A stretch of 31,936 bases of DNA from Acidobacteriota bacterium (GTDB lineage: Bacteria > Acidobacteriota > Vicinamibacteria > Vicinamibacterales > UBA2999). Shown here piece by piece: positions 9,942-25,475 of this stretch. Under the pieces are notes generated by a model. It had not been told where the DNA came from. It made no database searches and worked only from the letters and a program-made list of their open reading frames with translations. The translations under genes and the position numbers were made by a program. Numbering within the stretch: the stretch's first letter is position 1; each line of letters starts with the position of its first letter. Location of the stretch: positions 1 through 31,936 of the forward strand of contig JABFRY010000367.1 of assembly GCA_013140955.1 (NCBI GenBank), written 5' to 3'.

Positions 9942-11272
9942 GTCTCACCGCTCTTACCTGGCTGTTGGGCTATTGCCTTCTTGCCTGTCTCTCGTTCCTC
10001 AATCCGCTTTTCGGGGCTCTCGGCTACTTGCACGAGTATTACAACCGCCCGGAACTGCAGTGGTGGGGTGACGAGTTGCCCGCACTCCGATGGAACCTCA
10101 TCATCTCCATCATCCTTGGCGTCACCTTTCTCGTGCGCCGCTCCTCGCTCAGACCGCTGAAGTCCCTGAAGAACCTGACCGTGCCCTGGCTGCTTGTTCT
10201 AAACGCCACGATGATCATCGTCAGTGCTGTCCTCGCGGTCTGGCCGAGCGAGAGCTGGGATTGGACAATCCAGTGGACGAAGACGGCGTTGATTTTCCCG
10301 CTCTTGCTGATCGGCGTAACGAGGTCTCGGGGTGCATTCAACGCCATCGCGGCAGCCAACGTCGCCGGCGCCCTGTGGTGGGGTTGGGACTCGTGGCGCG
10401 ATCCCAAGCGACAGGCGGGGCGGCTCGTTGGCGTGGGCTCAGGGGATACGCAAGACGATAACGCGGCTGCCGCACACCTGGTGACGGTTCTGCCGCTGGC
10501 GGTGATGTTCCTGCTGGTCGAGAAGGACAAGCGACTTCGCGCCCTTGGGCTCGTCGCGGTGCCGTTCATCATCAATACAATCATCCTCTGCAACAGCCGC
10601 AGCGCGGTGGTGGCCATGGTCGTCGCCGCCGGCGCAACGATGCTCCTGGTGCGCTCGCAGTACCGCCTCAAGCTGGGCGGAGTGGCCCTGGCGATGGGGC
10701 TCGCCTTCTTCATGCTGGCCGATGAGCAGTTCATCTCGAGGCAACAGACCACGGCGAACTACGAGGAGGACAACTCCGCGCAGCAGCGCCTGATTGCTTG
10801 GCGGGCGGGGTACGAACTCGTCAAGGACCATCCTCTGGGCACTGGTGGGCGAGGCTTCCATTTCCTGAGCCCCATCTACATGCCCGAGATCGTCGCTGCT
10901 TACAATGGCGACCTGCGCGGGCCACACAATACGTACGTCATGGTGGCGTCCGAGTGGGGCGTTATCGGGCTCGTGGCGTTCATCGGCTACATCTCGGCGA
11001 CGTTCGTCATGCTCGGGCGTGTGAAGAAGAGGGCCAACGGGCAGGACTTCTACTACTGGCGAGCGCTGGCGGTTCAAGTCGGCTTCATTGCCTACCTGAT
11101 CGCAAGTGCCTTTACAGCGCGGCTCTATGCGGAGGTGGGCTACTGGTTCTCTGGACTGGCGTTCGTACTGTACCGCTTGCAGTACACGGAGATCGCTGAG
11201 CAGGCCAACCCGGTGAGCGAAGGCACCGAGATCGAACGCACCAGGGACGGGATTGACCGCTCGGCCGCCTGA
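9938..11272 (+). CDS. O-antigen ligase/Wzy-like polytopic membrane protein (similar to exosortase-locus O-glycosylation ligases)
   Basis: ATGA overlap, many TM segments, DDN..AAHL, NSRSA, SAQQRLIAW..G..L.KDHPLGTGGRGF and GPHNTYVMVASEWGVIG. Confidence 0.82.
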   Translation: MSLTALTWLLGYCLLACLSFLNPLFGALGYLHEYYNRPELQWWGDELPALRWNLIISIILGVTFLVRRSSLRPLKSLKNLTVPWLLVLNATMIIVSAVLAVWPSESWDWTIQWTKTALIFPLLLIGVTRSRGAFNAIAAANVAGALWWGWDSWRDPKRQAGRLVGVGSGDTQDDNAAAAHLVTVLPLAVMFLLVEKDKRLRALGLVAVPFIINTIILCNSRSAVVAMVVAAGATMLLVRSQYRLKLGGVALAMGLAFFMLADEQFISRQQTTANYEEDNSAQQRLIAWRAGYELVKDHPLGTGGRGFHFLSPIYMPEIVAAYNGDLRGPHNTYVMVASEWGVIGLVAFIGYISATFVMLGRVKKRANGQDFYYWRALAVQVGFIAYLIASAFTARLYAEVGYWFSGLAFVLYRLQYTEIAEQANPVSEGTEIERTRDGIDRSAA

Positions 11273-11273
11273 G

Positions 11274-12428
11274 ATGCGCGGCAACGGTCCCAGGCCAGGA
11301 GCGCACGCCGCCACCTCGATTTCTCCCGCTGGCGTCGCCGATCCGGCGCATCGAAAGAGCGCGCGCTCAAGCCCGATCGTCCCGGCCGTGTTCACGCCGG
11401 TCCTCGCCCGTCTGCAGCAGGAAGCCGCCGGACACTTTCCGGTGCCGGATGCCGTGCTGGTGGCCGTGAGCTACGAGGAGCGCCCGTTCTCGCACCTGCT
11501 CCGGGTGGGTATCGTGGGTCGCGGTGACGATGCCCCTCGGTCGCATGTGTTCGTGAAGATCTTCAAGACGGGTCCTCTCGGCGGCGACACGGCGAAGATG
11601 GCGGCGCGCGTAGCCCACGACTTCGAGACGACCCGGCGTCTGCACGATGCCATGGCGCACTGGGGCGACATGGGAGTCGTGCGTCCGGTGGCGTGCTATC
11701 TCGACCATCTGGCCATCGTCACGGAGGAAACGGAGGGCGTGACCCTGCAGGCGCGTCTCGAGGCCGACGCGGCGTGGCTGCCGTCGCACGACACGATGCA
11801 GGCGCTCGTCGCGACCATGCATCGAGCCGGCCGGTGGGTCGCTGCGTTTCAGACGATCGAGCCGTCGGACCGGCACGTGAACACGAGGGACCTGCGGGAC
11901 TACATCGACCTCCGACTCGGGAAGCTGGTGGGCGCACCGGCTGCGCGCTTCGACGACGCGGACCGCGCGCGGGTGCTCCGCCACCTCGACCACCTGACCG
12001 GCCTGGTTCCCGCCGGCGACCTCCGCGATGTCCTCGTCCACGCGGATCTCACGCCCGCCAACATGCTCGTTGCCGGCGACGGCATCGTGGTGCTGGACCT
12101 GGCCATGACACACCGCGGGACGCGCCTGCACGACCTCGCGCGCATGCACTTCCAGCTCGAGCTCCTGACGGCCAAGCCGCACTTCCTGGTGCGGACGGTC
12201 CGCCGCCTGCAGCACGCGCTGCTCGACGGCTTCGAGCCCGGCCTCACCGACCGTGACCCGCTCTTCAGGCTGCTGCTCCTGATGCAGCGGGTCAACCACC
12301 TGGGCTCGCTGGCGATCCGGCCGGCCGGCTTCCCCGCGTCCCTCTACAACCGGCATGTCCGGCGCCTGCATCGGCGGTGGCTCGACCGCGAGCTCCGCGT
12401 GGCAGCGGGCCAATCGGAGACGCGGTGA
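11274..12428 (+). CDS. APH/choline-kinase-fold phosphotransferase (start uncertain: TTG 11253, ATG 11274 or a later GTG)
   Basis: VFVKIF (ATP-binding Lys), catalytic loop VHADLTPANML, Mg-binding VVLDL, followed by DLAR. Confidence 0.72.
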   Translation: MRGNGPRPGAHAATSISPAGVADPAHRKSARSSPIVPAVFTPVLARLQQEAAGHFPVPDAVLVAVSYEERPFSHLLRVGIVGRGDDAPRSHVFVKIFKTGPLGGDTAKMAARVAHDFETTRRLHDAMAHWGDMGVVRPVACYLDHLAIVTEETEGVTLQARLEADAAWLPSHDTMQALVATMHRAGRWVAAFQTIEPSDRHVNTRDLRDYIDLRLGKLVGAPAARFDDADRARVLRHLDHLTGLVPAGDLRDVLVHADLTPANMLVAGDGIVVLDLAMTHRGTRLHDLARMHFQLELLTAKPHFLVRTVRRLQHALLDGFEPGLTDRDPLFRLLLLMQRVNHLGSLAIRPAGFPASLYNRHVRRLHRRWLDRELRVAAGQSETR

Positions 12429-14797
12429 GCGGCGCGCCGGTCGTAGGCTTTGGAGGCCGACTCCGCAAGCTCCGCGCGATGACCCCTGCGGAAGTCGCCG
12501 AGCGGCTCCGCTATCGGGTGTATCTCGGTCGTGAGCGCCGGGCTCATCGCCGGGGCACGCTGGCCCCAGCCGATCGCCTTCCCAGGGGCCTGGTCGATGA
12601 CCTCCGCGGGGCGGACTGGAGGGCGCGCCTGCTCGCTGCGCGCCTGAGCCGTCGGACACGATTCCTGCCAGGCGTGCAGCAGCAGGAGACGATGCGCAGC
12701 CTCTTCGCGAAGCGCTACGCCAGCGAGTTCGCCGCCACGACAACCCATGCGGCGAGGGCCAGAGCGCGGGAGTTCGCGTTCTTCGGCCACACGTTCACCT
12801 ATCCAGACGGGATTCCCTGGCAACACGATCCCGTGACGAACCTGCCGTGGCCGCCCGTGTACCACGCGGACGTCCCGATTCACCGCGGCAACACGGTGGC
12901 CGGGGACGTGAAGCACGTCTGGGAGCTGAGTCGGCATCAGTTCCTCATCGACCTGGGCAAGTCGGTCTTCCTCACGGGCAGCGCCGAGGACACCGCGGCG
13001 ATCCGGTCGCTGGTCCGGAACTGGCGCGCGGGTAATCCGTACGCCACCGGGGTCAACTGGGCGTGCGCCCTCGAGCCGGCCTTCAGGTCGTTCTCGTGGA
13101 TGTGGGCGTACTTCCTGTCGGTGGACGCACTGGACGACGACTTCCATATCGAGTGGCTCGAGGGCCTGCTCGACCACGGCCGATTCCTGTACCGGCACCT
13201 CGAGTACTTCGCGAGCCCGTACAACCACCTGATCGGCGAGGCGTCGGCGCTCTACATGCTGGGTGCGCACTTTCCGGAATTCTCCGAAGCCGCCGAATGG
13301 CGGGCGCGTGGACGACACGTGCTGGAGGGCCGGCTCGCGGAGCAGTTCTACCAGGACGGTGGCAGCGTCGAGCAGTCCACGTTCTATCACCACGCCACGA
13401 TCGGCTACTACCTGCTGGCCACCCTCACGGCGCGCGCCGCCGGCGACACCCTGGCCCCGGCGATCGACCAGGCCATCGAGCGGGGACTGGACTTCAGCGT
13501 CGCGCTCTCGCAACCCGACGGCAGGACGCCGGAGATCGGGGGCGCGGACGACGGCAAGCCGATCAGGATGGAGCACCTGCCCTTCTGGGACTTCCGGCCG
13601 TACTACGCCATCGGTGCAGTGCTCTTCGGGAGGACCGACCTCAAGCGTGCCGCCGGACGCTTCCACGAGGATGCGCTCTGGCTCCTGGGTCCCGAGGGTC
13701 TGGCCCGCTTCGACGCCATGCCCGACGGTGAGCCACGGGCCACATCGGTGGCACTCCCCCATAGCGGCTACTACGTGATGCGCAGCGACTGGACGGAGGG
13801 CGCTGACTACGTCTGCATGGACTGCGGGGAGCAGGCCGCCGGCATGCGGACCGATGACGTCCCCAATTCCATGCACGGCCACGCCGATTGCCTCTCGGTC
13901 GTGGCCTGGCTGGCCGGCCGGCGCGTGCTGGTGGACTCGGGCCTCTTCGCCTACAACTGCGGGGGATCCTGGGAGGCGCACTTCCGCGAGACGGCCGCAC
14001 ACAACACGGTGCGCGTCGATGGACGGGATCAGGCGCGGCATATCGGCAAGATGGCGTGGTCCCACAGCTACCGTGCCACGTGCGAAGGCTGGTTGGCCGG
14101 CGATCGCGAGGCCTGGGTCATCGGCACCCACGACGGCTACGCGCGTGGCGAGGCGGGCGTGGTGCACCGGCGCGCCGTGTGGTTGAGGCCAGCTGGCTAC
14201 ATCGTCATCTGCGACGAACTCGTCGCGACCGGCGGGCATGACTACGAAGTGAACTTCCAGTTCGCGCCAGGGAGACTCAACGTGGCGGCCCCGCGGCAGG
14301 TGTACTTCGACGACGGTGCCACCGCGGGCGCTGGTGTGGACGTCCTCTGGACGGGCAGCGCCGCATGGACCGCCCGCACGAGCCTCGGAGGCGGGGCGCC
14401 CGACGACGGCTGGATCGCGCCAAGTCTCGGCGTGAAGCAGGCGGCCCCTCGACTCACGCTCACCTGCTCGGGGAGCGAGGGACGAACGGTGCTGTTGACG
14501 GTGCTTGCAGCCCGGAGCCCGCACGTGTCCGGGCCACGGGTAGACCTCGCACCGTCGCAGGCTTCCGCCATGGCAGGGGCCATCCGGGTATCCACCGCGG
14601 ACGGCGTGGATTGGTGTACCGCGCGCGGACTTCGGCCACCGGACGGCATCGACACCGATGCGCTGATCGCCATCTGCCGCGAGACGTCCCAGGCCTGGCA
14701 TGGCTCCTGGCAGGTGGGCGGCACCTACGTCCGTTGCACCGCCCATCCGGACGGCGCTCCGCGCCGCGACCACACGACCGAGGATCCGACACGGTGA
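12425..14797 (+). CDS. Heparinase II/III-family (lyase-fold) protein of capsule/EPS-locus type, no signal peptide
   Basis: GTGA overlap with the previous stop. WELSRHQ, YNHLIGEA, DGGSVEQSTFYH, YYVMRSDW, HGHADCLS and TAAHNTVRVDG. Confidence 0.88.
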   Translation: MSGAPVVGFGGRLRKLRAMTPAEVAERLRYRVYLGRERRAHRRGTLAPADRLPRGLVDDLRGADWRARLLAARLSRRTRFLPGVQQQETMRSLFAKRYASEFAATTTHAARARAREFAFFGHTFTYPDGIPWQHDPVTNLPWPPVYHADVPIHRGNTVAGDVKHVWELSRHQFLIDLGKSVFLTGSAEDTAAIRSLVRNWRAGNPYATGVNWACALEPAFRSFSWMWAYFLSVDALDDDFHIEWLEGLLDHGRFLYRHLEYFASPYNHLIGEASALYMLGAHFPEFSEAAEWRARGRHVLEGRLAEQFYQDGGSVEQSTFYHHATIGYYLLATLTARAAGDTLAPAIDQAIERGLDFSVALSQPDGRTPEIGGADDGKPIRMEHLPFWDFRPYYAIGAVLFGRTDLKRAAGRFHEDALWLLGPEGLARFDAMPDGEPRATSVALPHSGYYVMRSDWTEGADYVCMDCGEQAAGMRTDDVPNSMHGHADCLSVVAWLAGRRVLVDSGLFAYNCGGSWEAHFRETAAHNTVRVDGRDQARHIGKMAWSHSYRATCEGWLAGDREAWVIGTHDGYARGEAGVVHRRAVWLRPAGYIVICDELVATGGHDYEVNFQFAPGRLNVAAPRQVYFDDGATAGAGVDVLWTGSAAWTARTSLGGGAPDDGWIAPSLGVKQAAPRLTLTCSGSEGRTVLLTVLAARSPHVSGPRVDLAPSQASAMAGAIRVSTADGVDWCTARGLRPPDGIDTDALIAICRETSQAWHGSWQVGGTYVRCTAHPDGAPRRDHTTEDPTR

Positions 14798-16220: not shown

Positions 16221-17372
16221 GTGATTGCGCCCATCGATCTCACCGCGGACCAGCAGCAGCTGCAGGACGCCGCCATCGCGTTCGCCAAGCAGGCGCTCGG
16301 ACGGGACATGATCGCCCGCGACCGCGAGGAGCGCTTCAACCGCGAGGACTGGATGCAGTGCGCGGAGTTCGGCGTCCAGGCCATGCCGGTCTCCGCCGAC
16401 TACGGGGGCCTCGGCCTCGGCCTGGTGACATTGATTTCGGTCATGGAGGGCCTCGGCTACGGCTGCCGCGACTCGGGCCTCCTCTTCTCGCTCAACGCCC
16501 ACCTGTGGACCAATTCGATTCCCATCCAGATCTACGGCACCGAGGCACAGAAGCAGCGGTACCTGCCGGGACTCTGCAACGGGACGCTCATCGGCGCCAA
16601 CGGCGCAAGCGAACCGGACGCCGGGTCCGACATCTTCTCGATGCGCACCAGGGCCGAGCGCGTGGGCGACCACTACGTGCTGAACGGCGCCAAGACGTTC
16701 GTCAGCAACGCCCCTGTGGCCGACCTCTTCGTGCTCTACGCCACGATCGATCCGGCCCTTGGCCCCATGGGCGTCACCGCCTTCATCATCGAGCGCGACA
16801 CGCCAGGGCTGTCAGTGGGAAAGCACCTCGAGAAGATGGGCCTCCGAACCTCGCCGATGGCCGAGGTCATCCTGGAGGACTGTCGCATCCCGGTGGAGAA
16901 CCGGCTGGGCCGCGAAGGACGGGGCGCAGAGGTCTTCGAGTGCTCCATGGAATGGGAACGCGGGTGCATCCTGGGCAGCTTCCTCGGCACCATGCGCCGG
17001 CAGCTCGAGCAGTGCATCACACACGCCCGGAGCCGGAAGCAGTTCGGCAAGGCCATCGGGAAGTTCCAGTCCACGGCGAACCGCATCGTGGACATGCGCG
17101 TCAGGCTCGATGCCTGCCGGCCCATGGTGTACCGCATCGGGCAGCTCAAGGATCAGAACCGGAAGGCGGTGCTCGAAGCCTCGGTTGCCAAGCTGTTCGT
17201 GTCGGAGTCGCTCGTGGCGTCGATGCTCGACGCGGTGCAGGTGTTCGGCGGCTACGGCTACATGACGGAACAGGAGGTCGAGCGTGACCTGCGCGACGCC
17301 GTGGGCAGCACCCTGTACTCGGGCACGTCGGAAATCCAGCGCAACATCATCGCCAAGTGTCTTGGCCTGTAG
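16221..17372 (+). CDS. Acyl-CoA-dehydrogenase-fold flavoenzyme, most similar in motifs to L-prolyl-[carrier] dehydrogenases (PltE/PigA/RedW/CloN3/AnaB type)
   Basis: GLGYGCRDSGLLFSLNAHLW, IGANGASEPDAGSD, GAKTFVSN, KMGLRTSP, SMEWER (Glu246), FGKAIGKFQ and QVFGGYGY. STLYSGTSEIQR has Ser at the position of the MCAD catalytic Glu. Confidence 0.82.
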   Translation: MIAPIDLTADQQQLQDAAIAFAKQALGRDMIARDREERFNREDWMQCAEFGVQAMPVSADYGGLGLGLVTLISVMEGLGYGCRDSGLLFSLNAHLWTNSIPIQIYGTEAQKQRYLPGLCNGTLIGANGASEPDAGSDIFSMRTRAERVGDHYVLNGAKTFVSNAPVADLFVLYATIDPALGPMGVTAFIIERDTPGLSVGKHLEKMGLRTSPMAEVILEDCRIPVENRLGREGRGAEVFECSMEWERGCILGSFLGTMRRQLEQCITHARSRKQFGKAIGKFQSTANRIVDMRVRLDACRPMVYRIGQLKDQNRKAVLEASVAKLFVSESLVASMLDAVQVFGGYGYMTEQEVERDLRDAVGSTLYSGTSEIQRNIIAKCLGL

Positions 17373-18722
17373 GTGAGCGAGAGCATGTCCGTCCTGGCGA
17401 ACACGGGAGTCCCCATCATCGGACAGGTTGCCACGGGCAGCCCGGCCAAGCCCGCCGAGGGGCGCGCCGCCATGGCACAGACCGACTTCGGGCGGTTCGT
17501 GAGCATGATGGCGCAGCTGGGCCTGCTGCTGCTGGTGTTCTACTTCTACGACCTCGAGGAGCCGGCTTTCGGCATCCTCTCGCTGCTGGTGGTTGCGGGA
17601 TTCGCCATCCACTACTGGCTGCCCTTCGCCTGGAAGGAGACCTTCTACATCGGGTGGTGCCTGGCCGGCGCCTTCGTGATGCTCGATCCGCAGACCGCGG
17701 GGCTGCTGATCGCGTCGGGTCTGGCGCTGTTCGGCATCGTCAACCTCTCGATCCCGTTCCGCGCGCGGATGGCCATCGTGGCCGCGGTCATCGCCGTCCT
17801 CGTCTACGCACGGGCCACGTTGAGCCTGGGCATCCCGTACGAGTTCTGGCCCGTGTTCGGCGCCATCTTCATGTTCAGGTTCATCATCTACCTGTACGAC
17901 GCCGCCCACGCGAAGGCGAAGCCGACGCTCCGTGAGTTCCTCACCTACTTCTTCGTCCTGCCGAACTACTACTTCCTGCTGTTTCCGGTGGTGGATTTCC
18001 AGACGCACCGGCAGACCTACTTCCGGCGCAACATCAACGACATCGCGCAGCAGGGCATCGTCTGGATCGCGCGAGGCGCGATCCAGCTCCTGCTCTATCG
18101 CCTCGTCTATCACTGGAAGGGGCCGTCGAACGCGCCGGAGCTGGTGACGACGTTCCCGAGCCTGCTGACGACGATGACGCTGACGTACCTGCTCTACCTG
18201 CGGGTGTCCGGGCAGTTCCACGTCATCATCGGCTTCATGCACCTGTTCGGGTACGACCTGCCGGAGACGCACCGGAAGTATCTGCTCGCACGCAGCCTCA
18301 CCGACTTCTGGCGCCGCATCAACATCTACTGGAAGGACTTCATGGTGAAGCTCGTCTACTTCCCCGTGTACTTCCGGATGCGGCGCAGCGGTGAGGTGCG
18401 CGCGCAGGTGGTGGCCACCCTGATCGTGTTCGTCGTCACCTGGTTCCTGCACGCCTACCAGTGGTTCTGGCTGCGGGGCGACTTCCTGATGACGTGGCCC
18501 GATACGCTCTTCTGGGCGATCCTGGGCGGCCTGGTGACCATCAACCTGCTCATGGAGCGACGGAAGCCGGCGACCAGGGCGGCCGTTTCTCCGTGGCAGG
18601 CCCGGCTGGAGCCGTTGAAGGTGGCCGGCACGTTCCTGCTGATCGTCACGCTCTGGTCGTTGTGGAACTCGCCGTCGGTCCCCGAGTGGGTGGACCTGAT
18701 GACGTGGTGGAGAGTCGGCTGA
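17373..18722 (+). CDS. MBOAT-family membrane-bound O-acyltransferase (DltB/AlgI-like)
   Basis: Polytopic hydrophobic protein with MFRFIIYLYD, FPVVDF, SLTDFWRRINIYWKDF and FVVTWFLH (His360, the likely catalytic His). Confidence 0.9.
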   Translation: MSESMSVLANTGVPIIGQVATGSPAKPAEGRAAMAQTDFGRFVSMMAQLGLLLLVFYFYDLEEPAFGILSLLVVAGFAIHYWLPFAWKETFYIGWCLAGAFVMLDPQTAGLLIASGLALFGIVNLSIPFRARMAIVAAVIAVLVYARATLSLGIPYEFWPVFGAIFMFRFIIYLYDAAHAKAKPTLREFLTYFFVLPNYYFLLFPVVDFQTHRQTYFRRNINDIAQQGIVWIARGAIQLLLYRLVYHWKGPSNAPELVTTFPSLLTTMTLTYLLYLRVSGQFHVIIGFMHLFGYDLPETHRKYLLARSLTDFWRRINIYWKDFMVKLVYFPVYFRMRRSGEVRAQVVATLIVFVVTWFLHAYQWFWLRGDFLMTWPDTLFWAILGGLVTINLLMERRKPATRAAVSPWQARLEPLKVAGTFLLIVTLWSLWNSPSVPEWVDLMTWWRVG

Positions 18723-18751
18723 ATCACGGGACCCCTGGAGACAACCTAGCG

Positions 18752-19003
18752 ATGGACAGTACCAAGGAAGCAATCCGCACCTACATCCTCAACGAGTACC
18801 TGCCCGGCGAGTCGCCGTCGAACCTCAAGGACGACACTCCGCTGCGTACGAGCGGCATCCTCGACTCCATGGCCACCCTCAACCTGGTGAGCTACCTGGA
18901 GCAGACGTTCGGCATCCAGATCGACGCGCACGAGACAGGAGTCGAGAACTTCGACCGGATCGAGGACATCGTGGCGCTGGTGGCCAGCAAGAAGGGCGCC
19001 TGA
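18752..19003 (+). CDS. Acyl/peptidyl carrier protein (83 aa), PltL/PigG/RedO-like
   Basis: GGAG upstream. IRTYILNEYL...DDTPL..SGILDSMATLNLVSYLEQTFGI, with the phosphopantetheine Ser39 in GILDSM. Confidence 0.92.
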   Translation: MDSTKEAIRTYILNEYLPGESPSNLKDDTPLRTSGILDSMATLNLVSYLEQTFGIQIDAHETGVENFDRIEDIVALVASKKGA

Positions 19004-19005
19004 AC

Positions 19006-20562
19006 GTGAACCTCTGCGACTACCTCGCGGGAAGTGTGGTCCGGACACCCGACCGCGTGGCGGTGGTAGGCCCGTCCGGCCGTGGCCTGACGTACCGGGA
19101 ACTCGACGACCTGTCGAACCAGGTGGCCGCATTCCTGCGGGCCCGTGGCGTGAAGCGGGGTGACCGGGTGGGGGTCATCGCGCCCAAGAGCGCAGAGGTC
19201 GTCGCCACCCTGTTCGGCGTGATGAAGGCCGGGGCGGCGTACGTCCCGGCAGACTACACGGCGCCGGTCACGCGCAATCGCACGCTGCTCTCCGACTGCG
19301 CCGTGTCCGCCGTGTTCCTCGCGCCGTCATGCGCGGGCATCATGGCCGAGTGGCCCCTCGCCCAGGCGCCGCACGTCGCCTGGCTGCCGGGCGGGGATGC
19401 CCCGGCCGGGATGGGCACGCCGTGGGCCGACGTCGTCTCGACGCCTGCCGCGGAGGGGGCCGACCTGGCGGGCCCCGACGAACTGGCCTACATCCTCTAT
19501 ACGTCGGGCTCGACCGGCGTGCCGAAGGGTGTGATGCTCACCCAACGGAACGCAACCAGCTTCGTGGACTGGTGTTCCGACGAGTTCCTGCCACGGGAGA
19601 CCGACCGGTTCAGCAGCCACGCGCCGTTCCACTTCGACCTGTCCATCCTCGACCTGTACGTGCCCCTCAAGCACGGGGCCGCCCTGCACCTGGTGTCGGA
19701 GGCCGTGGGCAAGAACCCGCAGGAGCTCGCCGCCTTCGTCGCCGACCGGCAGATCACGGTCTGGTACTCGACGCCGTCCATTCTCAGCCTGCTCGCCCAG
19801 TTCGGCGGCCTCGAGGCCAGGGACTGTTCGGCCCTCAGGCTGGTGCTCTTCGCCGGGGAGGTCTTCCCAGTGAAGCATCTCCGGAGCATCACGGAGCGGT
19901 GGCCGCAGGCGGCCTTCTACAACCTGTACGGACCGACCGAGACCAACGTCTGTACGTTCGCGCGCATACCGGCGGTGGTGCCGGAAGACCGGACCGCACC
20001 CTATCCCATCGGGCCGGCATGTCCGCACTGCGACGCCCTGGTGCTCGATACGCCTGGCGGCTCGGTCGTCGGGCAGGGCGAGGAGGGGCTGCTGCACATC
20101 GCCGGCCCCTCACTGTTTGCCGGCTACTGGAACCGCCCGACGAGCGAGACGTTCTTCGAGCGTGACGGGCGGCGGTGGTACAACACCGGCGACGTGGTGG
20201 TGGAAGATCCGGACGAGGGGTACATCTACGTGGGCCGGCGCGACAGGATGGTGAAGCGCCGAGGCTACCGGATCGAACTCGGAGAGATCGAGAAGGGGCT
20301 CTATCAGTTCGACCGCGTCCGTGAGGCGGCCGTGGTCGCCCTCCCGGATGCGTCGGCTGGCGTGCGGATCATCGCCTTCGTCACGCCGTCCGGTGAACGG
20401 CCGTCGATCATCGAGCTCAAGTCCTTCTGCGGGCGGGCGCTGCCGGCGTACATGAACCCCGATGCCTTCGTGTTCATGGATGCCCTGCCCCGCACCTCGA
20501 CGGACAAGGTGGACTACCAGGCCCTCATCGGGTCGCAACTCGCGCCGAAGCAGCCGGCCTGA
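19006..20562 (+). CDS. Stand-alone amino-acid adenylation enzyme, predicted L-proline--[carrier] ligase (PltF/RedM/CloN4 type)
   Basis: LAYILYTSGSTGVPKG, FHFDLSILD, ITVWYSTPS, VLFAGEVF, NLYGPTETNVC, YNTGD, GRRDRMVKRRGYRIELGEIE and LPRTSTDKVDY. The pocket residues, aligned by eye to GrsA, read DLLYLALVCK. Confidence 0.85.
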   Translation: MNLCDYLAGSVVRTPDRVAVVGPSGRGLTYRELDDLSNQVAAFLRARGVKRGDRVGVIAPKSAEVVATLFGVMKAGAAYVPADYTAPVTRNRTLLSDCAVSAVFLAPSCAGIMAEWPLAQAPHVAWLPGGDAPAGMGTPWADVVSTPAAEGADLAGPDELAYILYTSGSTGVPKGVMLTQRNATSFVDWCSDEFLPRETDRFSSHAPFHFDLSILDLYVPLKHGAALHLVSEAVGKNPQELAAFVADRQITVWYSTPSILSLLAQFGGLEARDCSALRLVLFAGEVFPVKHLRSITERWPQAAFYNLYGPTETNVCTFARIPAVVPEDRTAPYPIGPACPHCDALVLDTPGGSVVGQGEEGLLHIAGPSLFAGYWNRPTSETFFERDGRRWYNTGDVVVEDPDEGYIYVGRRDRMVKRRGYRIELGEIEKGLYQFDRVREAAVVALPDASAGVRIIAFVTPSGERPSIIELKSFCGRALPAYMNPDAFVFMDALPRTSTDKVDYQALIGSQLAPKQPA

Positions 20563-20589
20563 CGGGCCGGCAACCTTACGGGGACACGC

Positions 20590-21780
20590 ATGAAGACCGC
20601 ATTGTCGAACGACGTCGTCCGCATCGTCATCGTCCTGCTGCTGCTGCTCGGCCTGAAGGGTCTCACCGCGGCCGAGTGGCCAGGCGGCACGCTCGGCTCG
20701 TGGAATGAGACGTTGTTCACGACCATGGCGAACCGCGACCTGAACAAGGAGGCACGCGAGGCGCTCACGGCCGGCTACTACGAGGGTCTCATCAACGAGG
20801 GCTCGCGCCTCAGCTCGATGAACCGGCTCGTCACCGACACCCGGCGTCCCTCCTGGGAAGACCGGTCGCAGCCGGACCGCCGGCAAACGTTCGACTTCAT
20901 GTTCTACGAGCTGATCCCCAACTCCGACATCCCGGACTACCAGGATGAGCGGTTTAAGTACCGCCTGCGCACCAACAGCGCCGGCTTGGCGGATCAGGAA
21001 TATGCGCTCGAGAAGCCGGCCGGGACGAGGCGACTCGCCATCGTCGGCGACTCGATCACGCGCGGGCAGGGCGCCCCCTTTCAGGGTAACTACGAGGCGC
21101 TGCTCGAGCGCCGTCTCAACGAGGCCCACGTCACGGGCGACACGACGAAATACGAGATTCTCAACTTCGCCATCGGGTCGTACAACGTCACGCAGATGAT
21201 GGAGGCCGCCATCGTGCGGGCAACCCCCTACCAGCCGGACGTCTACGTGGTGGCCTTGTCTGACCTGAGCGTGTATCGGCGGTGGGACCAGCACATCGCC
21301 ATGCTCGTCTACGCTGGCATCGACCTGAAGTACGACTACCTCAAGGATCTCATCGCCACCACGGGACTCTCGGCCGACGACCCGATCGGCGTGTTCGATG
21401 CGAAGCTCTCGCGCTACCGCATCCCGACGATTCAGTGGGCGCTCGAACAGGTGAAGCAGCACGCCGACGCGCAGGGCGCCGATATGGTGGTGCTGCTCGT
21501 ACCGACGGCAGACGACCCTGCGCTGCTCGCCGAGGAGTTCCTCGGCGTGCGGGAGATGCTGGATACGCTGGGGGTTCCGGTCGTGGACCTGCTCGGCACG
21601 TTCGACGGCATCGACGACCGCGGACGCTACCGTGTGTCGGACGGCGACCGCCACCCGAACGCGGAGGGCCATCAACTGCTGTACGAGGGCCTCTACGAGC
21701 GCCTCCAGTCAAACGCCGAACTGCGATCGGCGATTACCGGTACGGCGGGCGATTCACCCTCCCCCGCACGGACCCAGTAG
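20590..21780 (+). CDS. Membrane-anchored SGNH-hydrolase-fold protein (DltD/AlgJ/AlgX-like periplasmic acyltransferase)
   Basis: N-terminal hydrophobic helix, block I LAIVGDSI, block II NFAIGSY, and block V DGDRHPNAEGH. Confidence 0.8.
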   Translation: MKTALSNDVVRIVIVLLLLLGLKGLTAAEWPGGTLGSWNETLFTTMANRDLNKEAREALTAGYYEGLINEGSRLSSMNRLVTDTRRPSWEDRSQPDRRQTFDFMFYELIPNSDIPDYQDERFKYRLRTNSAGLADQEYALEKPAGTRRLAIVGDSITRGQGAPFQGNYEALLERRLNEAHVTGDTTKYEILNFAIGSYNVTQMMEAAIVRATPYQPDVYVVALSDLSVYRRWDQHIAMLVYAGIDLKYDYLKDLIATTGLSADDPIGVFDAKLSRYRIPTIQWALEQVKQHADAQGADMVVLLVPTADDPALLAEEFLGVREMLDTLGVPVVDLLGTFDGIDDRGRYRVSDGDRHPNAEGHQLLYEGLYERLQSNAELRSAITGTAGDSPSPARTQ

Positions 21781-22865: not shown

Positions 22866-25475
22866 CTACTGGGCCAGGATGCGAAGGTTGCGTGGAGCGG
22901 CGGGAGCCGATGTAGACGGAGCAGCCGGCGCAACCGGAGGCGGAGGTAGTTCAGGAATCGGCTGCAGCGCCCTGAACGACACGCGGGTTCCGGCTGAGGC
23001 GTTCACGGACATGTATAGGAGTCCGGAGCTGGTGGCGGCTTGGCGAGCCGTGCTGCTGCCAGTGGTCACTTCGTACTCAACGCCAGGCCCGAGGTCGGCG
23101 ACAAGCACGCGGTAGGCTCCCGCCTGGTCGATCGTGAAGTCCCCCTGAGCCACACCTCTCTCCTGGTCGCCGTTGTACTCGACTGCGGCCAGTGTGGCAA
23201 ACACGGCAATTCGATTCCCGACCCTGACACCACGGTAGTTCTGTCCCGACAGGTACGCCGTCGGCGACTTGGGCGTTCCGACCTCACCGGCCTCGAACAC
23301 GTTCAGGAAGTCTGCGTTCCGAGTCGAAACCGCAGGAATGATTTCAACCCGGTACTGCCCGACGTACTGCGCGTCGGACAACTTGTAGCTGTTCCGGTTC
23401 GGGTTCGGGAAACCGAACGGGTCCTCGAATTCATGACTGAACGGGGTCGGGTCGGTGTCCCCGGTTGGCTTCGCCCACTCACCGAAGGAGTTTGGCCCCC
23501 CAACCAACACGACGTTGCGGTCGACAGGGAGCAGGCTCGTCACCCAGAGTTGGCCGTTCGAGCCGTCGGCATCGTTGACGACGGACATGGTGCCATTGCC
23601 ATTGCCCGTGTAGGTGGTCTTTCCCTCGCCACTGCCATTCCGGATCGGGACGTTCGCCTGCGGCGCCCCACCGATCACGGGTCGCCTGGACGGGTGAAAG
23701 ATCCAACGCTTCTCGAACTGCTCGCCCGTTGTCTCCGTTCGGTCGAAGATCACGATGCGATCGGGTTGTCCGGCCGACTCCGGCCTGAAGTAGACGAATT
23801 GGCGTGTGAATCTGGCGACCTTCGAGGAATTCACCGCATCGATAGCGTACGGTCCATTGAAGGTTCTGGTCGCATCCGCGAGGAAATAGTCGAAATCTCG
23901 CGCGTTGTTGCCGGGCTCGAACGTAGAGGCTCGAGTGATTCCACCGACGTCGTAGTCCGACGCCGGCTGGAGAAAATCAGTGCCGGTGACGTTGATGTAC
24001 GCCTTACGCTGCCCGCCCCGGTCCCAGGAATTCTGGTCCAGCACTTCGTCCGGGTCTGGAAAGATGATGGTGTTCCCTGACCATGCACCGGCAGCGTAGA
24101 CCTGGTGGCCGGCGGTCCCGCTCTTGATAACAAGGGGGCCACGGCGATCGATGGTGAAACTGGGATTCGACACCTGCCAGTAGGTGTTCGGCCGCGCCCA
24201 CGTGGCGGCATCCAGGGCGACGAAGCTGTCGCCGGCGTCGACCCATTCGGGGGTCCAGCGAGTCCTCATGAAGACCGAGCCGTAGGTCTCGAAGCGCTTG
24301 GTCAGCGGCATGCCCGCCTCGACCGGAGACCGGGCGGTCACGCCTTCAGCCAGAAGGAAGTGGCCGAACAGGTAGAAGAGACGCGCGCTGGTCGATGACT
24401 GCGACAGTGTGCCCTGCGTGTCGAGCAGCCACTGCGCGAGCCCTGCAGTGTTGTCGTCAATGCCCTTGTAGAGTCTCAGGGCACCAAGGAGGTGGATCAT
24501 GCCGGTGTACTGCGCGTACTTGGGCGCCTCGTCCGTGTTGTGCGTCCTCCATAGAGCGCCGCCGCCCTGGGGCAGGAGCATCGACACGATCCACTGCGGA
24601 TAGCGACGAAACACTGTCGCTGGACCGAAAACGTCTTCGCGGGTGAGCCCGAAGGCCGTACGCCTGGCTTCCATCGCCCTGATGGCCGCCAGTGTGGAAT
24701 CGCGAGTGGAGTAGCCCAGTCCCTGGCTCCAGCCCCCGTCGGATCCGGCGACGAAGTTGCCGGCAGTGACGATACTCGTGCTCTCGCCCTCGATGAAGCG
24801 ACTGTAGTCGTCCATACGGCGCAGCGCTTCGATATTGCCCGTGTTGAGATCGCCGATGCCCGTGTATTCGCCGTAGAACGCGAGGCCGGAAGTCACCCAT
24901 CGCTCGCGACCGTACATGGGCTGATCGTCGAAGGGGCTGTCGGTCGACTTGGGCTCCCTGAATCCGAGCATGTGGGTCACAACCTGGCGGCGCTGCTCCA
25001 CCGTGAGCCGGTCATGGAGCCAGTCGTACGCGACCGGAATGAAGTGTCCTTCGACGCCGTTGGCGATGGCCTGAAGCAGGAGCTGAATCGCCAGGTCGCC
25101 GTACTGGGCGCGCGAGAGGCCTGGCGAGATCCCGGGCACAGTGGACGGATCAACCTGATACAGGAAGGCGTAGTCCGCGATGTACATGAAGTTGTCTTCG
25201 TTTCGCCAGCCGACCGCGTCTGTGACCACCGTGGGCGCGGCCTCGTCCATGAGCTGGACGAACCTGGCGAATTCCGTCCGGAACGGACCACCCAGCTTGA
25301 CCCGCATCGCGGGCAAGTTGCCGGGTGTCAGGTACAACCTCGGATGAGTCCCCATCGCGATGGGAGATCCGGGAGGGACCACGGAGCCGTCTCCACTGGC
25401 GGCCCCCAGAAGCCCAAGGGATCCGGCGAGTACGGCCAACACGGCACACATCGCTACCTGTCTCGAGAACATCAT
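22866..25475 (-). CDS. Secreted heparinase-II-fold (PL21/PL12-like) protein, 869 aa, with a divergent active site and a Pro-rich C-terminal tail
   Basis: Signal peptide (AMCAVLAVLAGSLGLLGAA). THPRLYLT, GGWSQGLGY, GSVFMRTRW, FTIDRRGPLVIKSG, GGQR, DYFLADAT, FTRQFVYF..IVIFDR..KRWIFH. Confidence 0.7.
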   Translation of the reverse strand: MMFSRQVAMCAVLAVLAGSLGLLGAASGDGSVVPPGSPIAMGTHPRLYLTPGNLPAMRVKLGGPFRTEFARFVQLMDEAAPTVVTDAVGWRNEDNFMYIADYAFLYQVDPSTVPGISPGLSRAQYGDLAIQLLLQAIANGVEGHFIPVAYDWLHDRLTVEQRRQVVTHMLGFREPKSTDSPFDDQPMYGRERWVTSGLAFYGEYTGIGDLNTGNIEALRRMDDYSRFIEGESTSIVTAGNFVAGSDGGWSQGLGYSTRDSTLAAIRAMEARRTAFGLTREDVFGPATVFRRYPQWIVSMLLPQGGGALWRTHNTDEAPKYAQYTGMIHLLGALRLYKGIDDNTAGLAQWLLDTQGTLSQSSTSARLFYLFGHFLLAEGVTARSPVEAGMPLTKRFETYGSVFMRTRWTPEWVDAGDSFVALDAATWARPNTYWQVSNPSFTIDRRGPLVIKSGTAGHQVYAAGAWSGNTIIFPDPDEVLDQNSWDRGGQRKAYINVTGTDFLQPASDYDVGGITRASTFEPGNNARDFDYFLADATRTFNGPYAIDAVNSSKVARFTRQFVYFRPESAGQPDRIVIFDRTETTGEQFEKRWIFHPSRRPVIGGAPQANVPIRNGSGEGKTTYTGNGNGTMSVVNDADGSNGQLWVTSLLPVDRNVVLVGGPNSFGEWAKPTGDTDPTPFSHEFEDPFGFPNPNRNSYKLSDAQYVGQYRVEIIPAVSTRNADFLNVFEAGEVGTPKSPTAYLSGQNYRGVRVGNRIAVFATLAAVEYNGDQERGVAQGDFTIDQAGAYRVLVADLGPGVEYEVTTGSSTARQAATSSGLLYMSVNASAGTRVSFRALQPIPELPPPPVAPAAPSTSAPAAPRNLRILAQ

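Follow-up and report, generated by a model that had tools for sequence, protein, structure and literature searches.

The subject of this analysis is a cassette of five genes that may serve to acylate the cell envelope. It occupies positions 16221–21780 on the + strand of a 31,936-nt stretch of DNA (the window), which is contig JABFRY010000367.1 of assembly GCA_013140955.1 from an Acidobacteriota bacterium (Vicinamibacterales; UBA2999). The source genome is a metagenome-assembled genome (MAG) of 3.28 Mb in 554 contigs and is 84% complete. The GC content of the window is about 66%, and real genes were told apart by codon-position GC; the five open reading frames (ORFs) of the cassette have a third-position GC (GC3) of 0.88–0.94 and are separated by gaps of 0, 29, 2 and 27 nt. 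In order, they encode a prolyl-carrier-protein dehydrogenase of the acyl-CoA dehydrogenase (ACAD) fold (383 aa; 16221–17372), a divergent membrane-bound O-acyltransferase (MBOAT; 449 aa; 17373–18722, or 445 aa from the start at 17385 in the public gene call), a DltC-like carrier protein (83 aa; 18752–19003), a stand-alone L-proline adenylation enzyme (518 aa; 19006–20562) and a membrane-anchored SGNH acyltransferase or esterase (396 aa; 20590–21780). This tight gene order had been described in an initial annotation of the DNA and is upheld here, and every motif quoted there for the ACAD, the carrier and the adenylation enzyme is present in the translations.

The cargo is indicated first of all by the adenylation enzyme, which matches AMP-binding and AMP-binding_C in Pfam and scores 351 bits, over the cut-off, on TIGR01733. 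Its translation contains the motifs FDLSIL, WYSTPS, LFAGE and NLYGPTETNVC. Its best single-domain match in the PDB is the L-proline ligase PltF (6O6E, 338 bits), with DltA at 231 bits, and its 276–280 bits on the DltA models fall short of the cut-offs (476 and 560). A HMMER alignment gives D-L-L-Y-L-A-L-V-C for the nine Stachelhaus positions that lie between motifs A4 and A5, in agreement with PltF at 9/9 positions; with the final Lys the ten-letter code is DLLYLALVCK. The pocket of a second proline ligase, 7THN, is DLFYIAWVC, and that of DltA (3E7W) differs from the cassette enzyme at 6/9 positions. The pocket code that had been read by eye and the proline code DLLYLALVCK given with it are confirmed by the identity to PltF, and the proline specificity proposed from them is supported by it. 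By homology, the enzyme is shown to activate L-proline and to load it onto Ser39 of the carrier.

The carrier, which reads IRTYI..DDTPL..GILDSM, matches Pfam PP-binding at 26.8 bits (cut-off 20.8) with the phosphopantetheine site at Ser39 in GILDSM. Among NCBIfam models it scores 109 bits on NF052616 (cut-off 130) and matches DltC with an E-value of 4.8e-7, at 29.7 and 20.2 bits on DltC models with cut-offs of 68 and 52; by these scores the carrier is related to DltC and is not its equivalog. Its match to the acyl carrier protein (ACP) family 'ACP_for_OlsHI' arises because the homologue in Singulisphaera acidiphila adjoins the presumed OlsH locus. There, the closest homologue (L098:8710–8958, at ~2.01 Mb on the chromosome; 51% identity) is found immediately downstream of an ORF of 543 aa, which is presumed to be OlsH from its chromosomal position. 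A link of the cassette to ornithine lipids was considered on this basis and rejected: no MBOAT lies at the S. acidiphila homologue, and kinship of the carrier family is all that the match shows. No phosphopantetheinyl transferase is encoded in the window. In a Gemmatimonadaceae MAG whose five-gene cassette stands alone, a holo-ACP synthase gene (PF01648; L092:16606–16992) was seen two genes downstream.

The dehydrogenase carries the Pfam domains Acyl-CoA_dh_N, _M and _1. Its highest NCBIfam scores are to PigA (455 bits) and RedW (415 bits), both under the strict equivalog cut-offs of 500 and 650, and the next is AcrC at 284 bits. In the PDB it scores 452.6 bits with AnaB (4IRN), 329.6 with PigA (5ZW0) and 327.4 with Bmp3 (6CXT), metabolic ACADs remaining at or below 274. 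Its motifs are GLGYGCRD, LFS..AHLW, SMEWER (E244, E246) and YSGT, the last replacing YEGT; the SMEWER segment is common to AnaB, and the enzyme retains the motif in which AnaB and Bmp3 have their shared catalytic glutamate (PMC10849742). It is the only dehydrogenase of the prolyl-carrier type in the genome, the other ACADs of which score ~225 bits on the PigA model. In a phylogenetic tree, cassette ACADs and ACADs from natural-product contexts interleave in one clade apart from generic ACADs (support 100/99); the tree was built without AnaB, PigA, PltE and RedW, for which the PDB and NCBIfam scores stand in. The earlier assignment to the prolyl-carrier type agrees with the top PDB scores, the lead of the PigA and RedW models and the separation from generic ACADs.

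The MBOAT was harder to place by sequence. It has no Pfam match, a profile of its family searched against PDB sequences found no MBOAT, and it scores 19 bits on the DltB model TIGR04091 (cut-off 375). Its homologues are annotated by JGI as DltB or AlgI and by NCBI as hypothetical. An AlphaFold2 model built from 26 homologues (pLDDT 87.8, pTM 0.86) confirmed the fold: Foldseek against the PDB returned DltB first (8JEM and 6BUG; E 3e-7, TM-score 0.53–0.57), followed by HHAT, PORCN, LPCAT3, ACAT and DGAT1, and the top 21 matches are all MBOATs. N317 and H360, 43 residues apart, are invariant in 78/78 homologues, as are H283 and the block D311-FWRRxNIYWKDFM; an Asn/His pair is typical of MBOATs. 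Judged from the model, the second cassette protein is an MBOAT, though by its sequence score no DltB equivalog, so that the identity proposed earlier stands on structure where sequence models fail. Its C-terminus (...EWVDLMTWWRVG) has no tyrosine and no FxYxxF, and the residue at the shuttle position varies among homologues (D, Y, N, V or A).

The SGNH protein matches Lipase_GDSL_2 in Pfam. Its AlphaFold2 model (pLDDT 85.9) consists of an N-terminal transmembrane (TM) helix (residues ~2–27), a flexible tether modelled at low confidence and a confidently modelled SGNH domain, for which Foldseek found SGNH hydrolases, including TesA, and the transferase PatB (7TJB), in keeping with the fold assigned in the initial annotation. 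The catalytic residues are Ser155, Asp353 and His355, with S155 and H355 invariant in 75/75 sequences. The model indicates a membrane-anchored SGNH-type protein like DltD, with a predicted transferase activity. The tether carries a motif, GYYE (G62-Y63-Y64-E65; 20773–20784, + strand), that is a candidate tyrosine acyl shuttle and is invariant in 74/74 homologues, including forms fused to the MBOAT and those from cassettes predicted to carry other cargo. In Dlt and PatA/PatB, the MBOAT acylates the tyrosine of a FxYxxF hexapeptide located C-terminally on DltX or on the MBOAT itself, after two extra TM helices, and the SGNH partner takes the acyl group off that tyrosine (PMC12148441). The fused proteins are ordered as MBOAT core, two extra TM helices, ~35 residues, GYYE and SGNH domain, which puts GYYE in the topological place of the PatA/AlgI FxYxxF shuttle. 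The 0–29 nt intergenic gaps of the cassette leave no room for a DltX microprotein. By analogy, GYYE probably takes the role of the shuttle tyrosine. Of the Dlt-like relay proposed earlier, then, the logic of adenylation enzyme, carrier, MBOAT and SGNH protein is retained, DltX and the C-terminal FxYxxF are not, and GYYE is their probable substitute.

The five genes are linked well beyond this genome. A search with the MBOAT, limited to one genome per species, gave >560 matches, and 80 loci were fetched (locus numbers with L are used below where single loci are meant); ORFs with in-frame stops in L028, L031 and L058 were omitted from alignments. The 80 loci span Acidobacteriota, Planctomycetota, Gemmatimonadota, Burkholderiales and other Pseudomonadota, Myxococcota, Chloroflexota and Rhodothermaceae, and a Vicinamibacterales MAG holds a near twin of the window. 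A census covered the 53 loci that are flanked on either side by 6 kb or more; the counts are of related loci and not of independent events. The SGNH partner is present in 53/53, the carrier and a ligase of any kind in 47/53 each, a PltF-like adenylation enzyme in 41/53, the ACAD in 36/53 and all five genes in 35/53. Gene order differs between lineages while linkage is kept across phyla, which bears out the earlier expectation of conserved synteny. In 15/80 loci (L053, L054, L056, L057, L059, L065, L068, L069, L071, L073, L075, L076, L078, L079 and L080) MBOAT and SGNH protein are fused into one protein of ~850 aa (842–880 aa), and by the Rosetta-stone argument such natural fusions imply that the two act together. 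Where they lie in the fetched DNA, the carrier, proline adenylation enzyme and ACAD follow the fusion, or precede it in L053, L065, L069, L075 and L080; the ACADs of fusion loci mostly form a separate subclade.

The presence of the ACAD goes with the proline code. All 48 of the ACAD-positive loci scored keep Asp235 and 47/48 have a PltF-like code, which is exactly DLLYLALVCK in 32 of them plus the window (33 rows). In most loci that lack the ACAD, the ligase is 24% identical and has no Asp235, and a few such loci, for example in Singulisphaera, retain a proline-type enzyme without a nearby ACAD; three Singulisphaera loci with MBOAT, SGNH protein and adenylation enzyme (L067, L070 and L077) have neither an adjacent carrier nor an ACAD. 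In about ten Acidobacteriaceae loci (L024:9314–18515; also L009, L029, L035, L037, L040, L044, L045, L046 and L072) the MBOAT, SGNH protein and carrier are kept and the proline enzymes are replaced by another module comprising Amidohydro_2, a ligase of the non-amino-acid type, a chorismate pyruvate-lyase, a PMT_2 glycosyltransferase and often an O-methyltransferase. The AMP-ligase of this variant lacks Asp235 and has the pocket AHAPFALSAK. Chorismate pyruvate-lyase makes 4-hydroxybenzoate, and the gene content points to a planar aromatic acyl group of the 4-hydroxybenzoyl type as the cargo. The carrier stays beside the MBOAT, at 46–61% identity, even in cassettes that have another ligase and no ACAD. 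We propose from these comparisons a wider family in which the MBOAT, the SGNH protein and the carrier form an unchanging core and the loading enzymes are exchangeable cargo modules.

We read the five genes, with a confidence that is moderate and better than even, as a carrier-protein-dependent envelope acylation relay of the Dlt kind that exports a proline-derived group, probably pyrrole-2-carbonyl, to an extracytoplasmic acceptor. In the proposed mechanism, the adenylation enzyme would activate L-proline and load it onto Ser39 of the 83-aa carrier. The prolyl-S-carrier would then be oxidised by the ACAD flavoenzyme, most likely in a four-electron reaction that yields pyrrole-2-carbonyl-S-carrier; the enzyme family is established by the comparisons above, and the oxidation state is the predicted part. 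By analogy with DltB/DltX and PatA, the MBOAT would accept the carrier-bound acyl group on the cytoplasmic side and pass it across the membrane, where the likely receiver would be the tyrosine of GYYE on the SGNH tether. Finally, the SGNH domain would use Ser155 to hand the group on to an acceptor hydroxyl outside the cytoplasm; from the genes around the cassette, the acceptor here is probably a sulfated exopolysaccharide (EPS) of the XrtA type.

In the literature searched, which leaves most subscription journals outside it, we found no description of a proline- or pyrrole-loaded MBOAT-SGNH relay or of pyrrole-2-carboxyl esters on bacterial polysaccharides. To our knowledge, no carrier-protein-fed MBOAT-SGNH relay apart from Dlt, which carries D-alanine in Gram-positives, has so far had its mechanism worked out, and carrier-bound pyrroles are known to us solely as antibiotic and pigment starter units. 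What would be new here is the predicted donor chemistry and the candidate relocated shuttle motif, the Dlt/Pat type of relay being known.

Several points weigh against this interpretation. The relay is known here from genes, sequence comparison and predicted structures alone, and since the MBOAT is too divergent for Pfam or profile assignment, a carrier thioester is its predicted donor on the grounds of synteny. It lacks the canonical acyl-shuttle motif, and GYYE, a candidate replacement, may be assigned that role by analogy. The cassette is sporadic, occurring in 4/300 sampled genomes of the phylum. The nearest solved relative of the dehydrogenase, AnaB, stops at pyrroline-5-carboxyl-carrier, and no halogenase was found among the window genes scanned. 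Two of the six ACAD-positive contexts examined (L092 and L094) are not glycan loci, and with a genome that is 84% complete, an acceptor pathway may lie at a distance from the cassette.

The acceptor is best approached through the neighbouring genes. The cassette sits within an XrtA/PEP-CTERM EPS locus recognised by NCBIfam and Pfam, with a priming transferase (TIGR03013), a deacetylase (TIGR03006), a FemAB-like protein (TIGR03019) and, under curated cut-offs, a tyrosine autokinase (TIGR03018) and an O-antigen-ligase-like protein (TIGR03097). The EPS locus of the window also includes GT2 and GT4 glycosyltransferases, a Wzx flippase and a UDP-glucose dehydrogenase. Two sulfotransferases (PF13469; 7562–8482 and 21800–22810, both +), two heparinase II/III-like proteins (12377–14797, +; 22866–25475, −) and an APH-like kinase (11253–12428, +) complete the set, and this gene content suggests that the EPS is sulfated and glycosaminoglycan-like. 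The 19 other window genes scanned match no polyketide synthase (PKS), condensation-domain, halogenase or KASIII family, in line with the earlier statement that the window offers no competing acceptor; the 84%-complete genome holds no condensation domain and no second adenylation enzyme of the nonribosomal peptide synthetase (NRPS) type. A tblastn comparison of the window EPS proteins with the 80 loci found few shared neighbours, EPS loci being too variable for such a comparison, and locus contexts were read from Pfam annotation instead. In the window the cassette lies amid glycosyltransferases, heparinase-like proteins and sulfotransferases of the EPS operon. Elsewhere it lies beside EPS genes together with 3'-phosphoadenosine-5'-phosphosulfate (PAPS) synthesis genes and sulfotransferases (L081), near three GT4 genes in Burkholderiales (L082) and in a glycan locus in Myxococcota (L093); it stands alone in Gemmatimonadaceae (L092) and Bryobacterales (L094).

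EPS is probably the acceptor here, as the best guess from context, and the EPS or PEP-CTERM glycan named in the initial annotation is plausible for the window without being general for the family. It is possible, though we think it distinctly less likely, that the cargo is as proposed and the acceptor is other than the neighbouring EPS, namely a lipid, lipopolysaccharide, peptidoglycan, a glycan made by GT-C enzymes or a protein. Because the cassettes of L092 and L094 stand outside glycan loci, the acceptor may be a common envelope component instead of the local EPS. Many acidobacterial and Singulisphaera versions adjoin PMT_2 or PTPS-related GT-C membrane proteins or an LpxL-like acyltransferase, and among curated families the carrier comes closest to the ACP beside the ornithine-lipid genes of Singulisphaera acidiphila. 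Against such an acceptor, the cassettes of the window, L081, L082 and L093 lie amid glycosyltransferases in what is apparently one transcription unit, and known MBOAT-SGNH pairs of like fold acylate glycopolymers (PMC12148441).

A second alternative keeps the whole relay and changes the oxidation state of the cargo. Were the dehydrogenase to halt at the two-electron stage in the manner of AnaB, the relay would export pyrroline-5-carboxyl (dehydroprolyl) in place of an aromatic pyrrole, and the ester would be a reactive imine or latent aldehyde. Among solved structures, AnaB is nearest to the window enzyme (452.6 bits, compared with 329.6 for PigA) and also to the ACAD of a fused-type cassette, its product is (S)-pyrroline-5-carboxyl-AnaD (PMC3252866), and the window has neither a halogenase nor another pyrrole-specific enzyme. 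Against this, the family members RedW, PltE and Bmp3 carry out the four-electron oxidation (PMC10849742), and halogenases of the PltA type lie inside cassettes L012, L014, L021 and L048 (two copies in the last) and beside the MBOAT on the short contig L033. These halogenases are 61–65% identical to an enzyme of Brasilonema, and that of L012 (L012:15572–16924) scores 580 bits with PltA (5DBJ), 599 with ChlB4 and 571 with the FADH2-dependent halogenase 5BUK. The L012 halogenase gene also adjoins that of a Na/H-exchanger-like membrane protein. The ACADs of L012, L014 and L021 are 69–71% identical to that of the window and belong to the same subclade, and L048 and L033 have no ACAD within the fetched DNA. 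PltA reportedly chlorinates the pyrrolyl-S-carrier protein (title of Dorrestein et al. 2005). We know of no residue that sets two- against four-electron chemistry. The halogenases in sister cassettes, together with the aromatic acid made by the alternative cargo module, are why pyrrole is favoured over pyrroline: we consider pyrrole-2-carbonyl fairly likely as the cargo and pyrroline improbable, at roughly a one-in-several chance. The halogenase-bearing cassettes further predict the export of halopyrrole groups.

It is very unlikely that the genes are chance neighbours, with the pyrrole trio feeding a secondary metabolite and an AlgI/AlgJ-like pair O-acetylating the EPS from acetyl-CoA. The trio can evidently work elsewhere. 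MBOAT-less cassettes of KASIII-like protein, carrier, adenylation enzyme and ACAD are found on plasmids of Mycetohabitans rhizoxinica (pBRH01; L095:6116–10092) and Streptomyces microflavus (L096:6085–10092), and a halogenase-bearing set occurs in Brasilonema. The L095 and L096 ACADs are 56–58% identical to that of the window and nested among envelope-cassette ACADs, and because cassette and natural-product ACADs interleave in the tree, the trio appears to move between contexts. The adenylation gene of the Mycetohabitans cassette is annotated as two separate fragments. However, the linkage lasts across phyla while gene order shuffles, MBOAT and SGNH protein occur as fusions, the MBOAT family keeps a carrier and ligase even where ACAD and proline enzyme are replaced, the MBOAT lacks the FxYxxF of acetyl-CoA-dependent MBOATs, and NRPS condensation domains are absent from the assembled genome, as KASIII is from the window. 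Ordinary Dlt-type esterification with D-alanine or another unmodified amino acid, the ACAD being a metabolic passenger, we regard as the most improbable of the alternatives: although, with the generic adenylation model set aside, DltA and DltC are the named full-length NCBIfam models that match best and JGI labels MBOAT homologues DltB, the pocket equals that of PltF and departs from DltA at six positions, the DltA model scores fall far under their cut-offs and the ACAD belongs to the prolyl-carrier clade and co-occurs with the Pro-type code, so that plain D-alanylation is excluded by pocket and ACAD clade.

If the relay is as proposed, hundreds of bacterial species from soil and water covalently decorate their surface polymers with a building block of secondary metabolism, the family swaps proline-derived, halogenated and hydroxybenzoyl cargo as modules, and it holds a third solution to the tyrosine acyl shuttle. 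Base-labile pyrrole-2-carboxylate would be expected on the EPS, and the pyrrole group would alter the matrix in its hydrophobicity, its UV absorbance and its resistance to enzymes. More tentatively, and at somewhat less than an even chance, the cassette may belong to a widespread, undescribed family of MBOAT/SGNH/carrier relays that export aromatic or heteroaromatic acyl groups like those of natural products onto diderm surface polymers, with the shuttle moved to GYYE on the SGNH protein. The exported group would be pyrrole-2-carbonyl in this organism, halopyrrolyl in cassettes with a PltA-type halogenase and of the 4-hydroxybenzoyl type in those with the chorismate lyase module in place of the proline enzymes.

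It is useful to set the cassette beside the systems that it resembles. The pyrrole triads PltF/PltL/PltE (pyoluteorin), PigI/PigG/PigA (prodigiosin), RedM/RedO/RedW and Bmp4/Bmp1/Bmp3, and the two-electron AnaC/AnaD/AnaB (anatoxin-a), likewise combine a stand-alone enzyme having the PltF pocket with a carrier and an ACAD of the same clade, and the cassette ACAD shares with theirs the SMEWER glutamate motif and the lack of the YEGT base. Unlike the triads, the cassette has no PKS, NRPS, KASIII or other cytoplasmic acceptor among the window genes scanned, its trio is tied, in a polysaccharide locus, to an MBOAT in the membrane and an SGNH protein outside the cytoplasm, and its carrier is nearer to DltC-like carriers than to the curated families of peptidyl carrier proteins. 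With Dlt (DltA, DltC, DltB, DltX and DltD; teichoic-acid D-alanylation) it has in common the path from ligase to carrier, MBOAT, SGNH protein and envelope polymer, and DltB is the best structural match of its MBOAT. It differs from Dlt in its predicted cargo, which is proline-derived and oxidised on the carrier in place of D-alanine, in the lack of DltX, in the likely location of the shuttle Tyr in the GYYE of the SGNH protein and in its hosts, diderm bacteria from soil and water that have no teichoic acids.

PatA/PatB (peptidoglycan), AlgI/AlgJ/AlgX (alginate) and WssH/WssI (cellulose) resemble the cassette in pairing an MBOAT with an SGNH partner for Gram-negative envelope glycans, and the fused relatives of the cassette have, like PatA and AlgI, two extra TM helices before the tyrosine motif. 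Here the predicted donor is a carrier thioester and not acyl-CoA, there is no C-terminal FxYxxF and the cargo is predicted to be other than acetate. In the CloN/CouN systems of clorobiocin and coumermycin, carrier-bound pyrrole-2-carbonyl is esterified to a sugar hydroxyl by soluble cytoplasmic acyltransferases, giving a small-molecule glycoside. The cassette, by comparison, would deliver its acyl group through a predicted transmembrane relay onto an exported polymer.

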